From NCBI GenBank assembly GCA_016840465.1, contig JAEOSH010000062.1, forward strand, positions 1-11,534: a DNA stretch of 11,534 nucleotides, written 5' to 3'. Within the stretch, counting starts at the first letter, position 1, and each line of letters starts with the position of its first letter. Below the pieces are notes generated by a model. That model was not told the origin of the DNA. It did no database searches and saw only the letters and a list, made by a program, of their open reading frames with translations. The DNA is from Candidatus Baldrarchaeum yapensis (lineage in GTDB: Archaea > Asgardarchaeota > Baldrarchaeia > Baldrarchaeales > Baldrarchaeaceae). Below, piece after piece: positions 1,256 to 11,534 of this stretch. A program made the translations under genes and the position numbers.

Positions 1256-1699
1256 TCAAATGATGAAGAATTCGGGGCATATTTTCATGTTTCGAACCCA
1301 GAAAGCCACCTGTATGTCTTTTACGTGTGGGATAGTCGCAACTTTAACAATTAAGTCGTGTAGATGTTCAAAATCTCGAACCACTCCGATTGCCATCAGA
1401 TCGCAGTCGCCCACAACTTTTGTTGCTAAAATGATATCCTTTATTTCAATTAGTTTATTTAGAACCTGTGTGGAGTGTTCGGGCTCTGCATCAATCATGA
1501 GGGCTACCATGCTCCTGTAACCTATTTTCTCCGGGTTAATTACAACAGTTGAACCTTGTATTATGCCCTTTTTCTGCAGCATTCTAAACCTATTTACTAT
1601 GGTATCTGGTGAGACTCCTAGCTTTCTGGCAATTTCTCTGAACGAAGTGCGTGCATCTTTTTTGAGATACTCGATTATCGCTAAATCGATTTCATCCAT
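1256..1699 (-). CDS. Lrp/AsnC family transcriptional regulator
   Basis: MDEIDLAIIEYLKKDARTSFREIARKLGVSPDTIVNRFRMLQKKGIIQG HTH, INPEKIGY linker, RAM domain with GDCDL. Perfect SD GAGGTGA (plus-strand 1706-1712) 6 nt before the ATG. Confidence 0.95.
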   Translation of the reverse strand: MDEIDLAIIEYLKKDARTSFREIARKLGVSPDTIVNRFRMLQKKGIIQGSTVVINPEKIGYRSMVALMIDAEPEHSTQVLNKLIEIKDIILATKVVGDCDLMAIGVVRDFEHLHDLIVKVATIPHVKDIQVAFWVRNMKICPEFFII

Positions 1700-1712: not shown

Positions 1713-2177
1713 TTAAAAATTAAATTCAAAGTTTTCTGGGCAAAGTAGAACTTGTCCGACCCAGATGTTCGTGCTTACGTTCTTCACGTGCGGATGGCTC
1801 TTAATAAGGTCTCTAACTTCGCTTAAACGGGTAATGTCCTTAAAAATTGCTACACTAAACAAGTTACACTTACCGATCGAGGGGACACAGATAAGTACCT
1901 CAGGTATTCTCCGAATGAAATTAATTACATCGTTTATATGAGGGTAATTAACATTGATGCAAAAACTGGCTATATATTCATATCCGAGTTTTTTGGGATT
2001 GAGTAGGATTGTAGTCCCAGAAATAATTCCCATTTTCTTCATTTTGTTAAAACGTCTAATTATCGTATCGGTGGAGACGTTACATTTTTTTGCGATATCT
2101 GTAAACGGGGTTCTACCATCTCGTTGAAGAATTCTCAATATCTTGATATCGATTTCATCAAGTTTCACTCTTGCCAG
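1713..2177 (-). CDS. Lrp/AsnC family transcriptional regulator (tandem paralog)
   Basis: LDEIDIKILRILQRDGRTPFTDIAKKCNVSTDTIIRRFNKMKKMGIISG HTH, LNPKKLGY linker, RAM domain. ORF track extends to 2231, but SD GAGGTGG (2184-2190) points to CTG 2177 (or GTG 2168) as the start. Confidence 0.92.
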   Translation of the reverse strand: MARVKLDEIDIKILRILQRDGRTPFTDIAKKCNVSTDTIIRRFNKMKKMGIISGTTILLNPKKLGYEYIASFCINVNYPHINDVINFIRRIPEVLICVPSIGKCNLFSVAIFKDITRLSEVRDLIKSHPHVKNVSTNIWVGQVLLCPENFEFNF

Positions 2178-2219
2178 GAGTTCCCACCTCTTCCAACCGA
2201 TCTTGCATCCGACATTATA

Positions 2220-2227
2220 GTATATAA
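2220..2227 (-). promoter_or_regulatory. Putative TATA box of the lrp-lrp transcript
   Basis: TTATATAC on the minus strand, about 30 nt upstream of the SD at 2184-2190. Confidence 0.45.
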
Positions 2228-2347
2228 CCAACTTAAAAACTTATAGTGTCCGATATAGTCGAGCATTTTTCGGTCATTTACTTTCGCTTTTCGAAAATTC
2301 TTACGACGAAAATGTCAGGTGAAATGTTTCGATTATCGGACGGAATC

Positions 2348-2388: not shown

Positions 2389-2667
2389 ATGTTGAATATC
2401 GGACATATACTTGAGAGGGAGCTAAAGAAGAAGCGGTATTGTTGTGCCTGTTGTGGCTATACGTGGATAGAATTTGTTGGCCTCATCATCGAAAAGAGAG
2501 AAGGGTCAGATGATTTGCACTTTCGGATTGGATACGGTACGCCTCCTGAATGTCCGGTATGTGGATGCGATCTCGTGTATGAAATAGCGCTTTCTGAAGA
2601 AAACCAACAAGTAGAAGCCAGTTTTGAAGGCATTAAAATAATCCTAAGAGAAAGAACAGAAATCTAG
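2389..2667 (+). CDS. Small Cys-rich zinc-ribbon/rubredoxin-like protein, first gene of the operon
   Basis: YCCACCGYTW and PECPVCGCD knuckles, 7 Cys in 92 aa. SD GGTGA upstream; 31-nt gap to hdrA. Confidence 0.7.
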   Translation: MLNIGHILERELKKKRYCCACCGYTWIEFVGLIIEKREGSDDLHFRIGYGTPPECPVCGCDLVYEIALSEENQQVEASFEGIKIILRERTEI

Positions 2668-2698: not shown

Positions 2699-5600
2699 AT
2701 GGAAAAAACAACAGGCGATGTTCTTGTAGTAGGTGGTGGAGTAGCCGGCATTACAGCATCCTTAGAACTTGCCGAAAAGGGATTTAAAGTCTACTTGGTA
2801 GAGAAAAAGCCCTCAATTGGGGGGCACATGGCTCAACTAGACAAAACTTTTCCGACGCTTGATTGTTCAATCTGCATTCTTGGGCCAAAAATGGTTGAAG
2901 TTTCCAGGCATCCCAACATAGAACTTCTTACATGTTCTGAAGTCGTAGAAGTGAAGCCCATAAAAAACGGTTCTGCATTTAGGGTCAAAATACTTAAAAA
3001 ACCACGATATGTGGATGAAGAAAAATGTACTGGTTGTCGAAGATGTGAGGAGAAATGCCCGGTTAAAGTTCCCAGTGAATTTGAAGCGGGGATGGGGTTA
3101 AGAAAAGCAATTTATATTCCCTTCCCTCAAGCCGTACCAAATGTTGCAATCATCGACGAGAAAAACTGCCGTTATCTTAATAAAGGCGTTTGCAGACTCT
3201 GCGAGAAGGTTTGCCCCACGGGTGCAATTGATTTTAACCAGAAGCCTCAAGAAATCGTGGTAGAAGTAGCTTCAATAATTGTTGCGACCGGGTTTTCCCT
3301 CCTGGATCCATCTGTTCTGCCACAGTACGGATATGGTAGATTCCCGGATGTTATAACATCGTTACAATACGAACGCCTCATGAACGCTGCTGGACCTACG
3401 GGTGGAGAGATCGTCAGACCTTCAGATAAAACACATCCAAGAAGGGTTGCAATTATTCAGTGCGTTGGATCAAGAAACAAGAAAATAAGAGACTATTGTT
3501 CGCAGATTTGTTGCATGTATGCGGCAAAGCAGGCTATAGTTACGAAAGAACACGATCCAAATATAGACGTAATAGTTTTCTACAATGACTTAAATGCATC
3601 CGGCAAAGGTCACGAAGACTTACTGCAGAGGGCTATTGAAGAATTTGGAATTAAGTACATAAAGGGGCTACCAAGCGAAGTTCTATGGGATGAGAAAAGT
3701 AAAAAATTACTAATAAGGTATTTCGATTTCCTCAGCGGAGAAATTAAGTCTGTAGATGTGGATTTAGTAGTACTTTGCCCTGCAGTAGTTCCAAGCGACG
3801 ATACTTCCAAGTTAGCTGAAATTCTCGGGATAGAACTAAACGAATTTGGTTTCTTCAAGTCTACTGGTTACATGTCGGTCAATACTAATGTTCCTGGCAT
3901 ATATGTGTGTGGTGCATGTCAAAATCCCAAAGATATTTCTCATAGTGTAATGCAGGCATTAGCTGCTGCGGCCCAAGCGGCGAGCAGGGTAAAACGTGTA
4001 AACAGACAAGAAAGTACTTTAAATGTTGGGAAACTAGGAGGAGAGAGGAAAACATCGAACGAGGAGCCAAGAATAGGAGTTTTTGTATGCCATTGTGGTC
4101 TGAATATAGCTGCTGTTGTAGACGTAAAAGCGGTCGTTGAAGAAGCAAAGAAACTTAGCAACGTTGTTCATGCCGAAGATATAATGTTTACATGTTCTAA
4201 GGATGGGACAGAGCGAATTAAAGAAGCTATCAAAAAATACAATCTTAACAGAGTCATCGTGGCTTCATGTACTCCAAGAACCCATGAACCATTGTTCCGA
4301 ACCGTATGTGAAGAAGCGGGACTAAATCCGTACTTATTTGAAATGGTTAACATCAGAGAACAGGTTGCGTGGGTCCATAAGAGTTCCCCTGAGAAGGCGA
4401 CTGAGAAAGCCAAGGAACTCATTAGAATGGCTGTGGCGAAAGCAAGGCTCTTAGAGCCGTTGGAGCGAATGGAGATAGAAGTTACCCCTGCTGCTCTTGT
4501 TATTGGAGCAACTATCAGCGGTCTTATAGCCGCAAAAACCATTGCTGATAGCGGATTTAAAACGTATCTTGTTGATAGCGGAGAGAAAATGGGATACGAT
4601 CTGCATCTCTACGGGTACGATGAAGACGCTAAATGGGTCTCCGATTTAATCAATTCCGTAAAAGAGCATGAAAACATAGAATTTCTCCCCTCCACCAAAA
4701 TAGAAGAAGTTAAAGGCTCAATAGGGAATTTTGATGTTAAATTAAACCAGAATGGAGTTAGTAAAGAGATTAAAGTTGGAACAATCATTGTAGCAGTTGG
4801 CGCCGAGGAGTTTAAACCGGTGGGCTTATACGGCTACGGAAAATTCGGCAATGTCTATACTTTAACCGAATTCCAACGTATGAGTGAGAACGTGAAAGAT
4901 GAAGAAACCATAGTGTTCATTTTGTGTGCTGGTACTGGGAAGAATTTTGATCGAACATACTGCTCGGTTGTTTGCTGCGAAAGGTCCCTAAGAGAAGCGA
5001 TTAAAATCAAGAGCAAACACCCGAGGTCGAATGTGTACATATTATACAAGAACATAAGACTACCGGTCACCGGCGAAAAACTTTATCGCCAAGCTCGTGA
5101 GGCCGGAGTAATTTTCATGAGATATGATTCGGATAGATTGCCTGAAGTTCGTCAAGAAGACGGGAAACTTATTGTGGACGTTTACGATATCGCGTCTAAC
5201 ATGAACTTCGAAATAATCGCCGATAAAGTTGTTTTAGCCACACCCATCGTGCCTCTTGAGGAATACCGTGAACTTGCATCTAAACTCAAGGTTCCCCTTG
5301 ATAGTCACGGATTCTTCTTGGAAGCTCATCCAAAACTTAGACCCGTAGATTTCGCTACTGATGGAATTTTCCTCTGCGGATTAGCTTACAGTCCGCAAAG
5401 ATTAGATGAAAGCATCTCACAAGCATTAGCCGCAGCATCACGAGCTCTTACCACATTAATGAAAGGAAAAGTAATTACTGAGGCTATTACAGCTTATGTG
5501 AATCCAGAGCTTTGCACGGGTTGTGGACGATGCGTAAGGGTTTGCGAATTTGGTGCGATAAAACTTGAAGTCACTCCAGATAAACATCTAGTAGCCAGAG

Positions 5601-6151
5601 TTGATCCACTGCTGTGCAAAGGTTGTGGATCATGTTCGGTTGAATGTCCCGCGAGAGCTATAACGATGCATCACTTCAGAAGTGATCAAATTCTGAACAT
5701 GATTAAGACATTATTCGAAAAACCAACATCAGAAGAAGAATTGAAAATCGTAGCTTTCCTCTGCAACTGGTGTGGTTACGCTGCGGCAGATATGGCAGGT
5801 GTAAGCAGATACGAATACCCGCCAGCCGTTAGAATCATCCGTGTTATGTGTAGTGCCAGAGTAGATCCACTCCATGTACTGTACGCTCTTCTACTGGGAG
5901 CTGATGGTGTACTGATTATTGGTTGTCATCCGGGTGATTGTCATTACATTTCGGGCAACCTAAGGGCCGAGGAACGCATATCGAGGGTAAAAGAATGGCT
6001 AAAAGAGATCGGTTTAGAGCCGGAAAGAGTTAGAATCGAGTGGGCATCGGCTGGGGAGGGATTGAGATTGGCCAAAATTATCGAGGAATTCACGCATCAA
6101 ATAGAAGAACTTGGAGTAAATCCTTTAAGAAGGAGGTTAGTTAATGAGTAG
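2699..6151 (+). CDS. hdrA: Heterodisulfide reductase subunit A-like flavoprotein, tandem double module, fused to C-terminal MvhD domain
   Basis: VLVVGGGVAG FAD motif, IGGHMAQLDKTFPTLDCSICIL, inserted 2x[4Fe-4S] domain, CVGSR...YCSQICCMYAAKQA. Second module starts IGVFVCHCG...FTCS...ASCTPRTHE and contains FFLEAHPKLRPVD. C-terminal 2x[4Fe-4S], then MvhD (FLCNWCGY, RVMCSARVD, GCHPGDCHY; 5741-6151). SD GAGGT 2687-2691. Confidence 0.95.
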   Translation: MEKTTGDVLVVGGGVAGITASLELAEKGFKVYLVEKKPSIGGHMAQLDKTFPTLDCSICILGPKMVEVSRHPNIELLTCSEVVEVKPIKNGSAFRVKILKKPRYVDEEKCTGCRRCEEKCPVKVPSEFEAGMGLRKAIYIPFPQAVPNVAIIDEKNCRYLNKGVCRLCEKVCPTGAIDFNQKPQEIVVEVASIIVATGFSLLDPSVLPQYGYGRFPDVITSLQYERLMNAAGPTGGEIVRPSDKTHPRRVAIIQCVGSRNKKIRDYCSQICCMYAAKQAIVTKEHDPNIDVIVFYNDLNASGKGHEDLLQRAIEEFGIKYIKGLPSEVLWDEKSKKLLIRYFDFLSGEIKSVDVDLVVLCPAVVPSDDTSKLAEILGIELNEFGFFKSTGYMSVNTNVPGIYVCGACQNPKDISHSVMQALAAAAQAASRVKRVNRQESTLNVGKLGGERKTSNEEPRIGVFVCHCGLNIAAVVDVKAVVEEAKKLSNVVHAEDIMFTCSKDGTERIKEAIKKYNLNRVIVASCTPRTHEPLFRTVCEEAGLNPYLFEMVNIREQVAWVHKSSPEKATEKAKELIRMAVAKARLLEPLERMEIEVTPAALVIGATISGLIAAKTIADSGFKTYLVDSGEKMGYDLHLYGYDEDAKWVSDLINSVKEHENIEFLPSTKIEEVKGSIGNFDVKLNQNGVSKEIKVGTIIVAVGAEEFKPVGLYGYGKFGNVYTLTEFQRMSENVKDEETIVFILCAGTGKNFDRTYCSVVCCERSLREAIKIKSKHPRSNVYILYKNIRLPVTGEKLYRQAREAGVIFMRYDSDRLPEVRQEDGKLIVDVYDIASNMNFEIIADKVVLATPIVPLEEYRELASKLKVPLDSHGFFLEAHPKLRPVDFATDGIFLCGLAYSPQRLDESISQALAAASRALTTLMKGKVITEAITAYVNPELCTGCGRCVRVCEFGAIKLEVTPDKHLVARVDPLLCKGCGSCSVECPARAITMHHFRSDQILNMIKTLFEKPTSEEELKIVAFLCNWCGYAAADMAGVSRYEYPPAVRIIRVMCSARVDPLHVLYALLLGADGVLIIGCHPGDCHYISGNLRAEERISRVKEWLKEIGLEPERVRIEWASAGEGLRLAKIIEEFTHQIEELGVNPLRRRLVNE

Positions 6152-6653
6152 AGCGGCAACTTCTCTTAAATTAGTTGAGGCAGACACCAACTTAAAATTC
6201 GAGATCGCAAAAACGGAACTAGGGGGTAAAGCCTTCTGGTGCGTACAATGCGGTATATGTACCTCCGGATGTCCTGTTGCCGAATTTTTGAAACCCCACC
6301 GAATAGTCAGGATGGTAGTATTGGGGCTTAAAGACCAACTGATTAACTCTAGGGAAATCTGGTTCTGTACTACATGTTTCACCTGTTCGGAGAGATGCCC
6401 GCAAGAAGTTGATCCGGCAAATATCATATTTTCGTTGAAAAACATGGCAGCAAAACAGGGTAAAATTCCCAAAGGACTGAGAGATATAGGTAAGAGTCTG
6501 ATAGAAACTGGGAGGGCTATTAAGATAAGTACTGCTCGAGAAAAGGAAAGGATGAAACTAGGGCTTCCAAGGATTCCGCAAGTGGACGTTGAAAAGAATA
6601 GGAAAATACTGGAAGAGACTAATTTTGTGAAAACTTTGGAGGAGGCGAAGTGA
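6144..6653 (+). CDS. hdrC: Heterodisulfide reductase subunit C
   Basis: CVQCGICTSGCP and IWFCTTCFTCSERCPQEVDP, two [4Fe-4S] motifs. SD AGGAGGT 6131-6137; 8-nt overlap with hdrA; lies between hdrA and hdrB. Confidence 0.93.
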   Translation: MSRAATSLKLVEADTNLKFEIAKTELGGKAFWCVQCGICTSGCPVAEFLKPHRIVRMVVLGLKDQLINSREIWFCTTCFTCSERCPQEVDPANIIFSLKNMAAKQGKIPKGLRDIGKSLIETGRAIKISTAREKERMKLGLPRIPQVDVEKNRKILEETNFVKTLEEAK

Positions 6654-7534
6654 TGAAATACGCATATTACTTGGGATGTTTGATACCAGCAAGACTGAAC
6701 CAGTATGATTTGTCCACGCGTGCTGTGGCCAAAAAATTTGGTATTGAACTTGTTGACCTAGAGGGTGCGGGTTGTTGCGGCACGGTACTTGTTCGTTCTG
6801 TAAACTTCAAGACCAATCTGGCGATGAGCGCTAGGATATTAGCGCTAGCTAAAAACATGGGATTCGATCTTCTTGTACTCTGTAATGGTTGTTATGAATC
6901 TCTCATGGAAGCTGAAGATTTCGTTAAAACAAACGAAGATTTTAGGGAACAACTTAATACTATCCTCAAATCCACAGATAACCTGGTTTATGAAGGCGGT
7001 GTGAAAGTTAAACACCTCATTCAAGTATTATACGAAGATATAGGAATCGAGAGACTTAAAGATGAAATCAAAAAACCGTTTGATGGATTGAGAGTGGCGG
7101 TTCATTACGGTTGCCATATCCTGCGTCCATCTCATAGAATGAAATTTGACAACGCTGAAAATCCAAGAATACTCGATGATCTTGTTGAAATTACTGGTGC
7201 GAAGAGCATTTACTGGCCTTTAAAACTCTGGTGTTGCGGATCGCCAATATTGGCGATAGATAGGAATTTGAGCTTATCCATAGCTGGAATGAAACTCAAA
7301 AGTGCTAAGGAGGCTGGAGCTGATTGTATTGTAACCATCTGCCCAGCATGCCAAATCCAATTTGACATTTTACAGCCGGAGATAAGCAGAGTTACTGGTG
7401 AACAATACAATATACCTGTACTTCTCTATCCTCAGCTGCTTGGCCTCGCTCTCGGTTTTACACCGGAAGAAGTAGGTTTGCATCTCAATAGGATAAGTGC
7501 AGAAAGCTTGTTAAAGCTTCAAAGTAAAGCCTAG
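6653..7534 (+). CDS. hdrB: Heterodisulfide reductase subunit B (two CCG domains)
   Basis: YAYYLGC, GCCG, CNGCY, HYGCHILRP, WCCG, CPACQIQFD: full ligand set for two non-cubane clusters. ATG 6653 overlaps the hdrC stop (TGATG); ORF track starts at GTG 6650. Confidence 0.95.
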   Translation: MKYAYYLGCLIPARLNQYDLSTRAVAKKFGIELVDLEGAGCCGTVLVRSVNFKTNLAMSARILALAKNMGFDLLVLCNGCYESLMEAEDFVKTNEDFREQLNTILKSTDNLVYEGGVKVKHLIQVLYEDIGIERLKDEIKKPFDGLRVAVHYGCHILRPSHRMKFDNAENPRILDDLVEITGAKSIYWPLKLWCCGSPILAIDRNLSLSIAGMKLKSAKEAGADCIVTICPACQIQFDILQPEISRVTGEQYNIPVLLYPQLLGLALGFTPEEVGLHLNRISAESLLKLQSKA

Positions 7535-7545
7535 AGGTGAAAAGT

Positions 7546-8652
7546 GTGGTTACGGCTCTTAAAAAGAAAGTTTGGGACGTAAACCGGTGCAGTGGATGTG
7601 GGATGTGCGTTTCAACATGTGCAAAGAACGTTATACGCTTTCCCGAGGATGGTGATCAACCGATTTTGGAGGTCAGAGAGAAAAATGTTGGTTTGTCTCA
7701 TGTAGTGGTAGACACTTGCTTTTTCTGTGAAAGACCTTGCGAAGATAGTTGTCCCCGGTTGAAGGAATGGAAAAGTGGACCCGTGATTCGTATGGTTTCC
7801 GCAGTTTCAAAGTTGCCGGATGGCGACGTTATTGATGCGTTGCTGATTTCGGCGCTTAGGCGTGAGCTGATTGACGGGGCAATTATATGGGATGTGGAGA
7901 GAGATTCTTTCAAACCACTACCTAAAGTTGTGACCTCTGAAGATGAAATACTGAAAAGTGCAGGTTATCAGCACTTGTGGTGCCCGATTCTTAAAGCCTT
8001 GAATGACGCAATTTATGGAAGAGGATTAAAAAAGATAGCAGTTGTTGGACCGCCCTGCGTTGCCCAAGCGGTTAAAACCGTGCTATCATCTACAAATGAA
8101 AAGCTTAAGATGTATAGGGAGCGAATACGTTTAACCATCGGACTATTCTGTGACGGTATCTATTCCTATCAACTGGTAACCAACGAAATAGTCAGTAGAT
8201 TTAACATTAAGCCCTACGATATCAACGCGATAAGAGTAGATCTCAGAAATGCATTACTAAGAATCATAATGCACGACGGATCAGAAAAAACAATCCCGTT
8301 GCCGGATGTTCGAAAATACGTGAGGAATGGTTGCGCCCGCTGTACAGATTTTGCATCAGAATGGGCTGATATATCCGTTGGAGATGTGGGATCAGAGAAC
8401 GGAAAAACTACTGTCATTGTTAGAACGCCCATTGGTGAAAAATGCTTGGATTATGCTGTCAGGGAGAGAACCTTAGAGATTGTGGAAAGTCTCGTCAATG
8501 TAGAAGAGATACAAAGGTTTGTTTCGAGCAAGGAGAGAAGAAAACGGGCACAAGAGATAGATTCTCTTCTTCTATCAATGTTAGATGCCCTCTCAGGTGT
8601 AAAAAGTAAAGAGGAGATAGAAGAAATGCTAAAATCGATTGGGAGGAGATAA
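7546..8652 (+). CDS. FrhB/FdhB-family (F420 hydrogenase/dehydrogenase beta subunit-like) protein with N-terminal ferredoxin domain
   Basis: CSGCGMCVSTC and CFFCERPCEDSCP; IAVVGPPC, IGLFC, GCARCTDFASEWADISVGDVG, TTVIVRT. The track's start GTG 7537 lies inside a perfect SD GAGGTGA (7534-7540), so in-frame GTG 7546 is the likelier start. Confidence 0.88.
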   Translation: MVTALKKKVWDVNRCSGCGMCVSTCAKNVIRFPEDGDQPILEVREKNVGLSHVVVDTCFFCERPCEDSCPRLKEWKSGPVIRMVSAVSKLPDGDVIDALLISALRRELIDGAIIWDVERDSFKPLPKVVTSEDEILKSAGYQHLWCPILKALNDAIYGRGLKKIAVVGPPCVAQAVKTVLSSTNEKLKMYRERIRLTIGLFCDGIYSYQLVTNEIVSRFNIKPYDINAIRVDLRNALLRIIMHDGSEKTIPLPDVRKYVRNGCARCTDFASEWADISVGDVGSENGKTTVIVRTPIGEKCLDYAVRERTLEIVESLVNVEEIQRFVSSKERRKRAQEIDSLLLSMLDALSGVKSKEEIEEMLKSIGRR

Positions 8653-8655
8653 GCT

Positions 8656-9315
8656 ATGGAATATAAAATAGATGCAAGCAATAAAGACCTAAAAACGGTA
8701 AATTCTGAGATTAGAAAAGCAATTAAGAACGGGGTTGAGAAGATAATAGTTAAAAATGCTTCTCATATTCATGGTCTTGCGGCAGGGTTAAAAGGCGGTA
8801 CTATTATCATAAACGGAGATGTGGGAGACTACACAGCCGCGTTAAATGATGGTGCAACAATTATCATAAACGGCAATGCCGGTAAATTCTTGGCCGATAA
8901 CATGACTAAGGGCACGGTCATTGTTAATGGAAATGCAGGATATGGAGCCGCAGTCTATTGTTATGGTGGATTAGTTGTAATACGCGGAGATGCTGGAGAT
9001 TTCTTAGGTGCTTTGAATAAGGGCGCAACGATATTAGTTGCGGGGAATGCTGGAAACGAAGTGGGAACTTACATGGTGGGAGGAGAAATAATAATAGTTG
9101 GAGACGTGGGTAAAAACGTGGGCAATTGGTTTATTCGCGGTAGCATTTTTGTTGGAGGAAAATGGCAAAGCTTAGGGAATAATTGCAAAGAGGTGCCGAT
9201 GGAGAGTGAAGATATAAGGAGACTTGAGGAGTATTTCAACAAGTATGATATAAGCGCGAATCCGGAAAAATTTAAGAAACTAGTGCCCATTTCGGTGAAG
9301 CCATTCTATAAATAG
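8656..9315 (+). CDS. gltB3: Glutamate synthase GXGXG beta-helix subunit (GltB domain 3/FwdC-like)
   Basis: Repeating INGDVGDYTA, INGNAGKFLA, VNGNAGYGAA, IRGDAGDFLG, VAGNAGNEVG, IVGDVGKNVG units. SD GGAGG 8642-8646; directly upstream of the FMN subunit. Confidence 0.88.
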   Translation: MEYKIDASNKDLKTVNSEIRKAIKNGVEKIIVKNASHIHGLAAGLKGGTIIINGDVGDYTAALNDGATIIINGNAGKFLADNMTKGTVIVNGNAGYGAAVYCYGGLVVIRGDAGDFLGALNKGATILVAGNAGNEVGTYMVGGEIIIVGDVGKNVGNWFIRGSIFVGGKWQSLGNNCKEVPMESEDIRRLEEYFNKYDISANPEKFKKLVPISVKPFYK

Positions 9316-9329
9316 GGGGTGAAAGTGAG

Positions 9330-10850
9330 ATGCCCATATTAGGAGCTTATTGTGTTACAATGGACAAGGAACGTTGTATTAGTTGGAAAATGCCTGGAAA
9401 GTGTTCGACCTGTGTAATGGTGTGTCCAAATTCTGTCTTTTCAGTAGATGATTCGGGCAGAGTTTACGTGCTTAATGATTTGGCGTGCGTTGGTTGTAGG
9501 ATTTGTGTTGAAAATTGTCCTAATAACGTGATCCATATCCGGCCGGCCGAACCTGAACGCTTCTCAAGAGGACTATGGACGTATCAGACAATTGAGGAGA
9601 TTCATTACAAAGCTGAAACCGGAAAATACCTACTCAGAGGATATGGAACCATGGGATTATTGCCGCATTTCGATGACTTGGTTATTGTACCAGCTCACCT
9701 TTATCCACCTCTCCCTAAAGACAAATATAGGGAAGAATGTAAAATGGATGTTGTAATCGGCGAAGGAAGGGTGAAAAAGCCTTTAAAGCTTAAAATACCC
9801 GTTATGTTTGCTGCCATGTCATACGGAGCCATTTCAAGAGAGGCTAAGATAGCTATAGCTATAGCAACTGCTAAAATGGGAATTGCTGCGTGTACTGGTG
9901 AAGGAGGTTCTTTTCCCGAGGAATATTATCTTGCACATGGATATAAGAATGAAGAAGATTTCAAGCATGGCAAGAAAACATACGAACCCGGTGGATATTT
10001 GATAGTTCAGTGGGCTAGTGGCAGATGGGGAGTTTCTATCGATTACCTCAACAGATCAGACGCTATCGAAATTAAAATAGGACAAGGAGCAAAACCCGGC
10101 ATGGGCGGTCACCTACTTGGAGAAAAGGTTACGGAGGAAATAGCTAAGATCCGTGGCATACCAGTTGGTACAGACTGCCTTTCACCATGCCGACACTACG
10201 ACATTTATGATGTTAAAGAAGATTTGAAAAAACAAATCGAACTTCTTCGGGATGTAACAGACTATGAAAAGCCAATTATCGTAAAAATAGGTCCTGGAAG
10301 AGTATATAAAGATGTTAAAATTGCTGCCGAAGCAGGTGCGGACGCTATCGCCATAGATGGGATGCAGGGCGGAACAGGAGCCTCACCAGAACTTGCAATT
10401 CAAACTGCTGGAATTCCAACAATAGCGTGTATCCCGCTTGCCGCTAAAGCACTCGAAGATTTAGGTTTACGTGATGAAGTGAAAATTATAGCAATGGGCG
10501 GAATCCGTAATGGGGCGGATGTGGTAAAAGCTTTAGCACTAGGTGCTGATTGCGTAGCGATAGCTTCTGCAGCCTTAATTGCAATGGGGTGTCGTGTCTG
10601 TACGCAATGTCTTAAGGGAAGATGCCCATACGGTATAACATCTCAAGACCCAGAACTTCGAAAGAGGCTCCAACCAGAAAAAGCTGCTGAGCGACTGGTC
10701 AACTTCTTAAAAGCTATATCCGAGGAGATAAAAATGCTTACGATGCTTGCGGGTCACGACGATATTCATGAACTATCGAAAGAGGATCTACGAGCCTTAG
10801 ATCTCAATGTTGCAGCCATGACTGGTGTAAAGTTTGTGGGCTGGCCCTAA
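9330..10850 (+). CDS. gltB2: Glutamate synthase FMN-binding subunit (GltB domain 2) with N-terminal 2x[4Fe-4S] ferredoxin domain
   Basis: HFDDLVIVPA, AAMSYGAIS, TGEGG, ASGRWGV, EIKIGQGAKPGMGGHL, DGMQGGTGASP, GGIRNGADVVKALALGAD, GCRVCTQCLKGRCPYGITSQDPELR. SD GGGGGTGA 9315-9322. Confidence 0.93.
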   Translation: MPILGAYCVTMDKERCISWKMPGKCSTCVMVCPNSVFSVDDSGRVYVLNDLACVGCRICVENCPNNVIHIRPAEPERFSRGLWTYQTIEEIHYKAETGKYLLRGYGTMGLLPHFDDLVIVPAHLYPPLPKDKYREECKMDVVIGEGRVKKPLKLKIPVMFAAMSYGAISREAKIAIAIATAKMGIAACTGEGGSFPEEYYLAHGYKNEEDFKHGKKTYEPGGYLIVQWASGRWGVSIDYLNRSDAIEIKIGQGAKPGMGGHLLGEKVTEEIAKIRGIPVGTDCLSPCRHYDIYDVKEDLKKQIELLRDVTDYEKPIIVKIGPGRVYKDVKIAAEAGADAIAIDGMQGGTGASPELAIQTAGIPTIACIPLAAKALEDLGLRDEVKIIAMGGIRNGADVVKALALGADCVAIASAALIAMGCRVCTQCLKGRCPYGITSQDPELRKRLQPEKAAERLVNFLKAISEEIKMLTMLAGHDDIHELSKEDLRALDLNVAAMTGVKFVGWP

Positions 10851-10855
10851 GTTAC

Positions 10856-10922
10856 TCAATTGGTTCCAACTAATAGTTCCAATTGACGATGAGATGTGTA
10901 ACTTATTTTTATTCAACTTTTC
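10856..10922 (+). terminator. Putative terminator of the hdr-glt operon
   Basis: Hairpin TCAATTGG(10856-63)/CCAATTGA(10879-86) with inner AACT/AGTT stem begins 5 nt after the stop, followed by T-rich TTATTTTTATTCAACTTTTC (10903-10922). Confidence 0.45.
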
Positions 10923-11288: not shown

Positions 11289-11534
11289 GTGGTGGTCGCG
11301 GTGGACTCCGCCGAGGAGGTTGCGCGGAAGGCCCTGGAACTCCTCCCCCAGATCCTGAAGGAACGGCCGGACCTGGCGTTTAAACTCTACGAGGAGTTAA
11401 GGAAGCACTTCGTGCCCCGCGACGCCTTCGAGAAATTTCTTGAAAGGTTCGACGCCGCCCTCCGCGAGATGAAGGAGATAAGGGAGGAGTACAACCGAAG
11501 GTTCGAGGAACTGCGGAGGGAAATGAACCAGAGG
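11289..11534 (+). CDS. 5' part of a coiled-coil protein, probably the archaeal coiled-coil plus PD-(D/E)XK nuclease-like type (DUF3782-like); truncated by the window end and absent from the ORF track
   Basis: Open frame after TAG 11280-82: VVVAVDSAEEVARKALELLPQILKERPDLAFKLYEELRKHFVPRDAFEKFLERFDAALREMKEIREEYNRRFEELRREMNQR. Start is GTG 11289, 11292 or 11301. Charged helical repeat pattern and strong coding-like codon bias. The nuclease domain is not visible in the window. Confidence 0.7.
   Translation, partial: MVVAVDSAEEVARKALELLPQILKERPDLAFKLYEELRKHFVPRDAFEKFLERFDAALREMKEIREEYNRRFEELRREMNQR

Follow-up and report, generated by a model that had tools for sequence, protein, structure and literature searches.

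The Hdr and glutamate synthase operon of Candidatus Baldrarchaeum yapensis

The window analysed here, i.e., the whole stretch of 11,534 nucleotides from Candidatus Baldrarchaeum yapensis (assembly GCA_016840465.1), is an entire contig (JAEOSH010000062.1; C25) of a 2.27-Mb assembly that is 96% complete and 1.7% contaminated. It contains a six-gene operon on a single strand, hdrA-mvhD/hdrC/hdrB/frhB-like/gltB3/gltB2, at the end of which lie two glutamate synthase (GOGAT) genes: gltB3, encoding the GXGXG subunit, and gltB2, encoding the flavin mononucleotide (FMN) subunit (Table 1). An earlier note on this DNA had stated that only these two subunits are encoded at positions 8656-10850 and that no open reading frame (ORF) of the window has a class II amidotransferase signature. 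Both statements were confirmed: the coordinates agree with the PF01493 and PF01645 matches, and family searches and a six-frame motif scan of the window for the amidotransferase were empty. The operon is bounded by a 92-amino-acid (aa) ORF and two divergent Lrp genes at its start and by a 438-base gap at its end; as both ends lie inside the contig, the amidotransferase gene gltB1 has not been lost to a contig end. We consider it rather probable that GltB2 and GltB3 form a glutamine-independent flavin/Fe-S glutamate dehydrogenase (GDH), which would replace hydrogenase or formate dehydrogenase on MvhD-HdrA.

The six genes are separated by only -8 to +14 bases. In the first flavin module of HdrA, the canonical Cys/Lys motif is kept and the flavin adenine dinucleotide (FAD) motif is present; the MvhD motif is intact, and HdrB and HdrC, the high-potential branch of HdrA complexes, are both encoded. 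The terminator that the earlier note had placed after gltB2 is plausible from a weak hairpin (z -1.62) with a T5 run at 10906, but the terminator scan of the window called none there.

Table 1. Features of the operon and its surroundings in the window.
Feature	Position	Strand	Evidence and remarks
gltB2, FMN/[3Fe-4S] synthase subunit, 506 aa	9330..10850	+	PF01645 141-476, E 1e-119; N-terminal 2x[4Fe-4S] ferredoxin domain; proposed catalytic subunit
gltB3, GXGXG beta-helix subunit, 219 aa	8656..9315	+	PF01493; in nearly every family operon
FrhB-like subunit (FrhB'), N-terminal 2x[4Fe-4S]	7537..8652	+	PF04422/PF04432
hdrB, two CCG domains	6650..7534	+	TIGR03288, E 1e-89; cysteine motifs present
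hdrC	6144..6653	+	TIGR03290, E 5e-34
hdrA, two flavin modules and fused MvhD	2699..6151	+	NF040770 HdrA2 above cut-off; FlpD 1017-1139
Zn-ribbon-like ORF, 92 aa, operon head	2389..2667	+	conserved ahead of hdr genes in L049, L050, L153
Lrp/AsnC regulator, divergent	1713..2231	-	kept next to the operon in L049, L050, L153
second Lrp/AsnC regulator	1256..1699	-	family match
weak hairpin and T run 3' of gltB2, possible terminator	10851..10915	+	absent from terminator scan output

Elsewhere in the window, a 286-aa ORF without a Pfam match (175-1035) has a C-terminal C-x6-C-x2-C-x5-C motif resembling the [4Fe-4S] loop of endonuclease III/HhH-GPD glycosylases, and an open, GC-richer ORF of repetitive coiled-coil type (11289-11534) runs past the contig end. 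Several further hdrA, hdrB and hdrC paralogs are found on contigs C52, C56 and C84 of the genome.

A GltB2 family without amidotransferase

The window GltB2 belongs to a family of at least 119 further clusters (at least 58% identity), and its gene cluster recurs in many anaerobes, archaeal as well as bacterial. Twenty-three further loci were read, making 24 with the window locus; they come from Asgardarchaeum, Baldr-, Prometheo-, Kor-, Culex- and Bathyarchaeia, Geocrenenecus, Geothermarchaeales, Methanomassiliicoccales and Chloroflexota. None of the 24 loci (17 with the whole operon) contains gltB1, whereas gltB1 adjoins canonical archaeal gltB2 in 29 of 29 control loci, so its absence is not due to chance. 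The same picture emerged from whole genomes. In nine other archaeal carriers (62-91% identity), the only matches to a GltB1 profile that detects both known types were frames of GlmS/PurF size, although most carriers are incomplete metagenome-assembled genomes of unstated completeness, in which single absences are weak and the pattern is the evidence. In a carrier assembled as one contig (G057, Bathyarchaeia, 1.5 Mb), the only class II amidotransferase matches are frames of 618 and 499 aa, and another carrier (G043) has a stand-alone GlmS-like domain. Five Chloroflexota carriers do possess GltB1, in each case beside another gltB2 or gltB3, and four lack it. The lack of the amidotransferase is a trait of the family.

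All complete family operons combine hdrA-mvhD, an frhB-like gene and gltB2, nearly always with gltB3, despite shuffled gene order. The archaeal ones mostly add hdrCB, which is missing from several operons (L052, L107, L152), and those of Chloroflexota add nuoE/nuoF/2Fe-2S genes. Carriers are rare: at a minimum of 62% identity, 4 were found in 251 Bathyarchaeia, and a sample of 300 Chloroflexota genomes contained no new one. Together with identities of 81-91% across archaeal phyla, this rarity suggests lateral spread.

Two small genes accompany some of the loci. A 250-aa gene beside four loci of two clades (L106:1953-2702, L144:2056-2811, L150:6389-7147, L152:10106-10873) was considered as a stand-in for GltB1 and rejected, being absent from the Baldrarchaeum genome and from 19 of the 21 genomes tested; it has no Pfam or Atlas match, and its structural model is poor (predicted local distance difference test, pLDDT, 56), with no fold match at Z of at least 5. 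A 170-185-aa gene occurs in Chloroflexota operons (L055:3679-4200; L054, L058-L061, L108, L109), mostly directly 3' of gltB2. To judge from Atlas features, its product may have a fold like that of nucleotidyltransferases, which we treat as a lead only.

The synthase site itself is well preserved. The equivalents of S876, K972, R992 and T1065 of Synechocystis ferredoxin-dependent glutamate synthase (1LLW), which we take to be the 2-oxoglutarate-binding residues, are kept in the alignment with the window GltB2. None of 139 family members departs from these four residues, from the EIK motif or from the three [3Fe-4S] cysteines (139 of 139 invariant), which shows that selection acts on the synthase site. 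The loop HDIYSIED with Glu1013 (Glu978), presumably the one that contacts the glutaminase in GOGAT and couples to it, is invariant in canonical proteins (E in 31 of 31). In the family (n = 139), this position is occupied by E (70), D (41), K (17), R (3) or Q (3), and 32 members have a one-residue insertion; judged from the alignment, the drift of the loop fits the loss of the amidotransferase partner.

As for the relation to GOGAT and to the N-methylglutamate synthase subunit MgsC, which the earlier note had proposed to settle by phylogeny, our trees do separate this GltB2 from the canonical one. They are quick trees with Shimodaira-Hasegawa-like support (SH-aLRT) and without bootstrap, drawn with midpoint rooting, and MgsC sits on a long branch. 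The family is one clade (SH-aLRT 95-100) within a larger amidotransferase-less clade (92), the neighbouring branches being MgsC/GlxD and a GltB1-bearing GltB3-GltB2 fusion type, with canonical archaeal GltB2 apart (99).

The larger clade includes two further groups. In the hydrogenase-linked sisters (L144, L145, L150, L151), gltB3-gltB2 lie directly beside genes for the small and large subunits of a [NiFe]-hydrogenase (mvhG/A-like), and no gltB1 was found in these loci or in the two genomes searched; these loci are candidates for H2-linked reductive amination. In the other group, which comprises 39 metagenome loci (L154, L157-L192, L194-L196) probably from Methanobacteriales, GltB2 has 620 aa and four ferredoxin motifs, and its gene has gltB3 as sole partner. 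The DNA of these 39 loci, to which the search was confined, has no gltB1 or frhB nearby. The simplest reading of the trees would be one loss of the amidotransferase followed by recruitment to differing electron modules. An apparent 914-aa GltB2-GDH fusion in sister locus L145 was rejected, as the joint is a run of N and homologues show no such fusion; it counts only as adjacency.

The genomic company of the family points to amino-acid metabolism. GDH-family genes flank three family loci (L048, L053, L152) and two sister loci (L145, L151), class III aminotransferase genes occur at L051 and L146, and Ord-like and cyclodeaminase-family genes flank other loci; Lrp regulators are further neighbours. 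AmtB was found in 0 of 12 genomes (ten archaeal carriers and two sisters) versus 12 of 16 archaea with canonical GOGAT, the genomes being related to each other. The only GDH-family protein of Baldrarchaeum is without the glutamate-specific lysine, and its gene adjoins iorAB-like genes. The lack of AmtB, the flanking genes and the state of this GDH-family protein fit amino-acid fermentation in nitrogen-rich settings. Two observations on single carriers may be added. The Promethearchaeota operon L152 is headed by a GDH-family gene (L152:261-1454) in whose product Gln replaces the catalytic Lys, making it a probable pseudoenzyme, and a second, intact-looking FrhB gene lies 3' of gltB2. The one-contig Bathyarchaeia carrier has only a 146-aa glutamine synthetase fragment (PF00120; G057:C1:1385214-1385492).

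The same wiring could serve another nitrogen substrate or amino acid, e.g., an amine such as methylamine (oxidation or formation of N-methylglutamate) or a glutamate analogue. In the tree, the family falls on the side of MgsC/GlxD (support 99-100), and it has a CRH-type loop in common with MgsC; both findings speak for an amine, a use that the earlier note had also raised. However, no gmaS, mgsA or methylamine gene lies beside any family locus, the neighbouring genes belong to glutamate and general amino-acid metabolism, and the glutamate-binding residues are all invariant. Amine use found no positive support in the [3Fe-4S] cysteines and ferredoxin clusters either, which are present here, unlike in MgsC, and we regard this alternative as unlikely.

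Still less likely is an ordinary glutamine-dependent GOGAT that borrows its amidotransferase from another locus, as the earlier note had also suggested. A genome-wide search with PF13522 gave five matches, of which one, on contig C68, is of the true GltB1 type; the others are frames of 621 and 498 aa, the sizes of GlmS and PurF, and two proteins resembling YafJ/EgtC. Thus, a GltB1-type gene with N-terminal Cys does exist elsewhere in the genome, glutamine synthetase is encoded as well, and the Baldrarchaeum GltB2 keeps a Glu near the coupling position. The C68 gene, however, has a one-base frameshift in a G run about 30 codons from its end. It is followed by a 120-aa ORF in which the beginning of a GXGXG domain runs straight into the final 76 residues of an FMN subunit; this ORF is a gltB3-gltB2 fusion from which about 600 internal codons have been deleted in frame (L003:1072-2344; G000:C68 about 27485-28757). 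These pieces match a system of GltB1 and a fused GltB3-GltB2 of about 710 aa (52-59% identity for GltB1, 62-68% for the tail), and their identity to the window protein is lower (51%). As they are closer to the fused system of another clade, the C68 locus appears to be a decayed second operon of glutamate synthase type or, in part, an assembly fault; the window gltB2 is the only whole gltB2 of the assembly. Borrowing would require either that the frameshift is an assembly error or that a GlmS/PurF/YafJ-type domain steps in. Given the drifted contact loop across the family and the nine archaeal carriers without GltB1, borrowing is largely excluded.

Proposed electron path, reaction and direction

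The predicted structure of the FrhB-like subunit (FrhB') has the FrhB fold (pLDDT 87; template modelling score 0.76 to 8riu_B) with intact Fe-S cysteines. In FrhB, a GG at a helix start and a Lys-Tyr loop surround the FAD (PMC3591093). Both motifs (GG and GTKY) are lost in 19 of 19 FrhB' members and kept in the FrhB paralog on contig C19 of the Baldrarchaeum genome; given this loss, FrhB' is probably a FAD-less Fe-S adaptor. Alternatively, FrhB' could still bind FAD and F420, and the complex would then be linked to F420H2, which would feed GltB2 and HdrA, as in a proposed F420-dependent glutamate synthase (FGltS). The intact fold and cysteines, the neighbouring cofD and cofE genes of the Baldrarchaeum genome and the earlier proposal of F420-dependent glutamate synthases for clusters of FrhB and GltB (PMC3448663) are in line with this alternative, which the loss of the FAD-lining residues makes improbable in our view. 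CofD is also without a match in four carriers (G057, G042, G044, G046). Nevertheless, the absence of F420 was dropped as an argument, because CofE-family genes are present in 5 of 5 carriers tested and Baldrarchaeum has both genes, so only the loss of the FAD motifs is used.

A complex of GltB2 and FrhB' was predicted with an interface score (ipSAE) of 0.70 versus 0.00 for the best control, with at least 83% contact agreement between runs and partner pLDDT of at least 86; this mark is reached by 58 of 80 solved pairs and by 2 of 110 mismatched pairs. The modelled interface joins ferredoxin domain to ferredoxin domain (GltB2 17-31 and 57-66 with FrhB' 29-64) and thus supports an electron wire between the two proteins. 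Independent but co-regulated enzymes, with GltB2 exchanging electrons with free ferredoxin, are very improbable: the four-ferredoxin relatives do stand alone with gltB3, and hdrBC is missing from the three operons named above, but hdrA-mvhD and frhB' accompany gltB2 in every complete operon despite reordering, the genes are tightly spaced, and the model supports a contact of GltB2 with FrhB'.

In GltS, 2-iminoglutarate is reduced by a hydride from the FMN, with the glutaminase supplying the ammonia (PMC8097209). Without the glutaminase subunit, the FMN site would be left with free ammonia and a reversible glutamate reaction. The isolated GltS alpha subunit reportedly has glutamate:dye oxidoreductase and ammonia-dependent activity. 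The reaction proposed here is that of an L-glutamate:acceptor oxidoreductase (L-glutamate = 2-oxoglutarate + free NH4+ + 2 electrons), in which the FMN would turn glutamate over via 2-iminoglutarate. Electrons would pass from the [3Fe-4S] cluster to the two [4Fe-4S] clusters of GltB2 and further through FAD-less FrhB' and MvhD to HdrA. At the far end, HdrCB (disulfide) and ferredoxin would be used in archaea and a NuoEF/2Fe-2S NAD(H) module in Chloroflexota. MvhD is the docking point of hydrogenase and formate dehydrogenase on Hdr (PMC6085437), and FrhB'-GltB2 plausibly sits there by analogy, so that GltB2/B3 would occupy the seat of MvhAG, FdhAB or ElpAB. The [3Fe-4S] cysteines are kept and ferredoxin clusters are added, unlike in MgsC, which suggests a protein built for net electron transfer. 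The use of free ammonia by a GDH-like module, put forward in the earlier note, is consistent with a synthase site that does not vary, a coupling loop that has relaxed and the family's genomic company; the activity is a prediction, and the earlier note had missed the HdrA-MvhD partner reached through the FrhB-like adaptor.

The direction of the reaction is harder to judge. The glutamate couple has a standard potential E0' of about -0.13 V, and we calculated -0.18 to -0.31 V at assumed cell concentrations. According to the same calculations, glutamate can reduce a disulfide of -0.14 V; run in reverse, as reductive amination, the reaction is favourable at standard state. Of the two directions, we slightly favour deamination, as part of amino-acid fermentation, over the assimilation of ammonium. 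For the hydrogenase-linked and four-ferredoxin sisters, amination would be the better fit. A truly energy-conserving GDH, in which glutamate oxidation at the FMN site feeds bifurcation at HdrA (to disulfide and ferredoxin, or to NAD with ferredoxin in Chloroflexota), is a tentative and rather doubtful extension.

Several points weigh against the proposed glutamine-independent GDH. The incompleteness of most carrier genomes and the kinship among them, owing to which they are not independent, weaken the argument from absence. The coupling loop is only a soft marker, since the Baldrarchaeum GltB2 still has the coupling Glu, after a one-residue insertion, and an amidotransferase-bearing relative (P0133) has Lys at the E1013 position. 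Amt-family genes are present in 3 of 4 Chloroflexota carriers tested, and almost all carriers, Baldrarchaeum included, keep glutamine synthetase. A structural model that passes the mark shows likeness to true pairs and not binding. Finally, at standard state glutamate is not a strong enough donor to drive bifurcation to ferredoxin (+58 kJ), which would be feasible only near -0.30 V.

Relation to known systems

Archaea other than methanogens and Chloroflexota are rich in Hdr genes, for most of which no electron donor is known, and this operon names a concrete candidate partner. If the proposal is correct, there would be a second, unrelated kind of GDH, through which the central step in the fermentation of amino acids is tied to the chemistry of ferredoxin or disulfides. 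If glutamate oxidation also fed bifurcation at HdrA, an amino acid would be the direct substrate of an HdrA complex, giving Hdr a role in peptide-fermenting Asgard archaea, Bathyarchaeota and Korarchaeota. A "glutamate synthase" annotation in a carrier genome is, moreover, not evidence for nitrogen assimilation via glutamine synthetase and GOGAT. As the core comprises two or three subunits, it is small enough for expression and assay. No description of the operon or of an amidotransferase-less GltB2 was found in the literature covered, subscription journals lying outside this coverage, and the accessible parts of a survey of HdrA gene clusters mention no GltB partner (PMC12054007).

The split glutamate synthase GltB1/B2/B3 is specified by three genes that are essential to Methanococcus maripaludis (10.1101/2024.03.05.583561). 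With this enzyme and with GltS alpha (PDB 1LLW, 1EA0, 6S6S), the family shares the FMN barrel, the [3Fe-4S] cysteines, the 2-oxoglutarate residues, the GXGXG subunit and the ferredoxin domain of GltB2. It differs from split archaeal GOGAT in that the amidotransferase is missing, the coupling loop has drifted, the proteins form a clade of their own (about 39% identical to canonical archaeal GltB2) and the operon partner is HdrA-MvhD/FrhB'. Clusters of frhB and gltB genes have been described as encoding putative F420-dependent glutamate synthases (PMC3448663, PMC9012536), and here, too, an FrhB-family gene with an N-terminal ferredoxin domain adjoins gltB genes. However, FGltS is written as glutamine- and F420-dependent, whereas the Baldrarchaeum operon has no gltB1, its FrhB-like subunit has lost the FAD motifs, and HdrA is an addition. 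MgsABC/GlxBCD (PMC6237917) is the nearest named clade, with the same gene order (GXGXG, then FMN) and amine/imine chemistry at the FMN. Yet it has the amidotransferase-like MgsA, and the two MgsC proteins compared are without the [3Fe-4S] cysteines and the ferredoxin domain; the family keeps both and is without MgsA. Judged from the genes, the system is therefore neither a GOGAT (no GltB1), nor an MgsABC (no MgsA, clusters kept), nor an FGltS (FAD motifs lost).

On the Hdr side, the operon resembles the bifurcating complexes MvhAGD-HdrABC, FdhAB-MvhD-HdrABC and ElpAB-Hdr (PDB 7BKB, 8RVU; PMC6085437, PMC12054007) in HdrA-MvhD, HdrBC and an FrhB/FdhB-family protein as the likely link to the catalytic module. 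Unlike in those complexes, a glutamate synthase core serves as the catalytic module, and FAD motifs are missing from the linker. HdrA, moreover, has two flavin modules here, and most hosts are not methanogens. The NAD(P)-dependent GdhA catalyzes the same proposed net reaction with free ammonia, but its fold is unrelated, and here the electrons would exit via FMN and Fe-S clusters rather than as hydride to NAD(P). On the gene evidence, the system likely works as a GDH made of GOGAT parts on an Mvh/Fdh-Hdr chassis.

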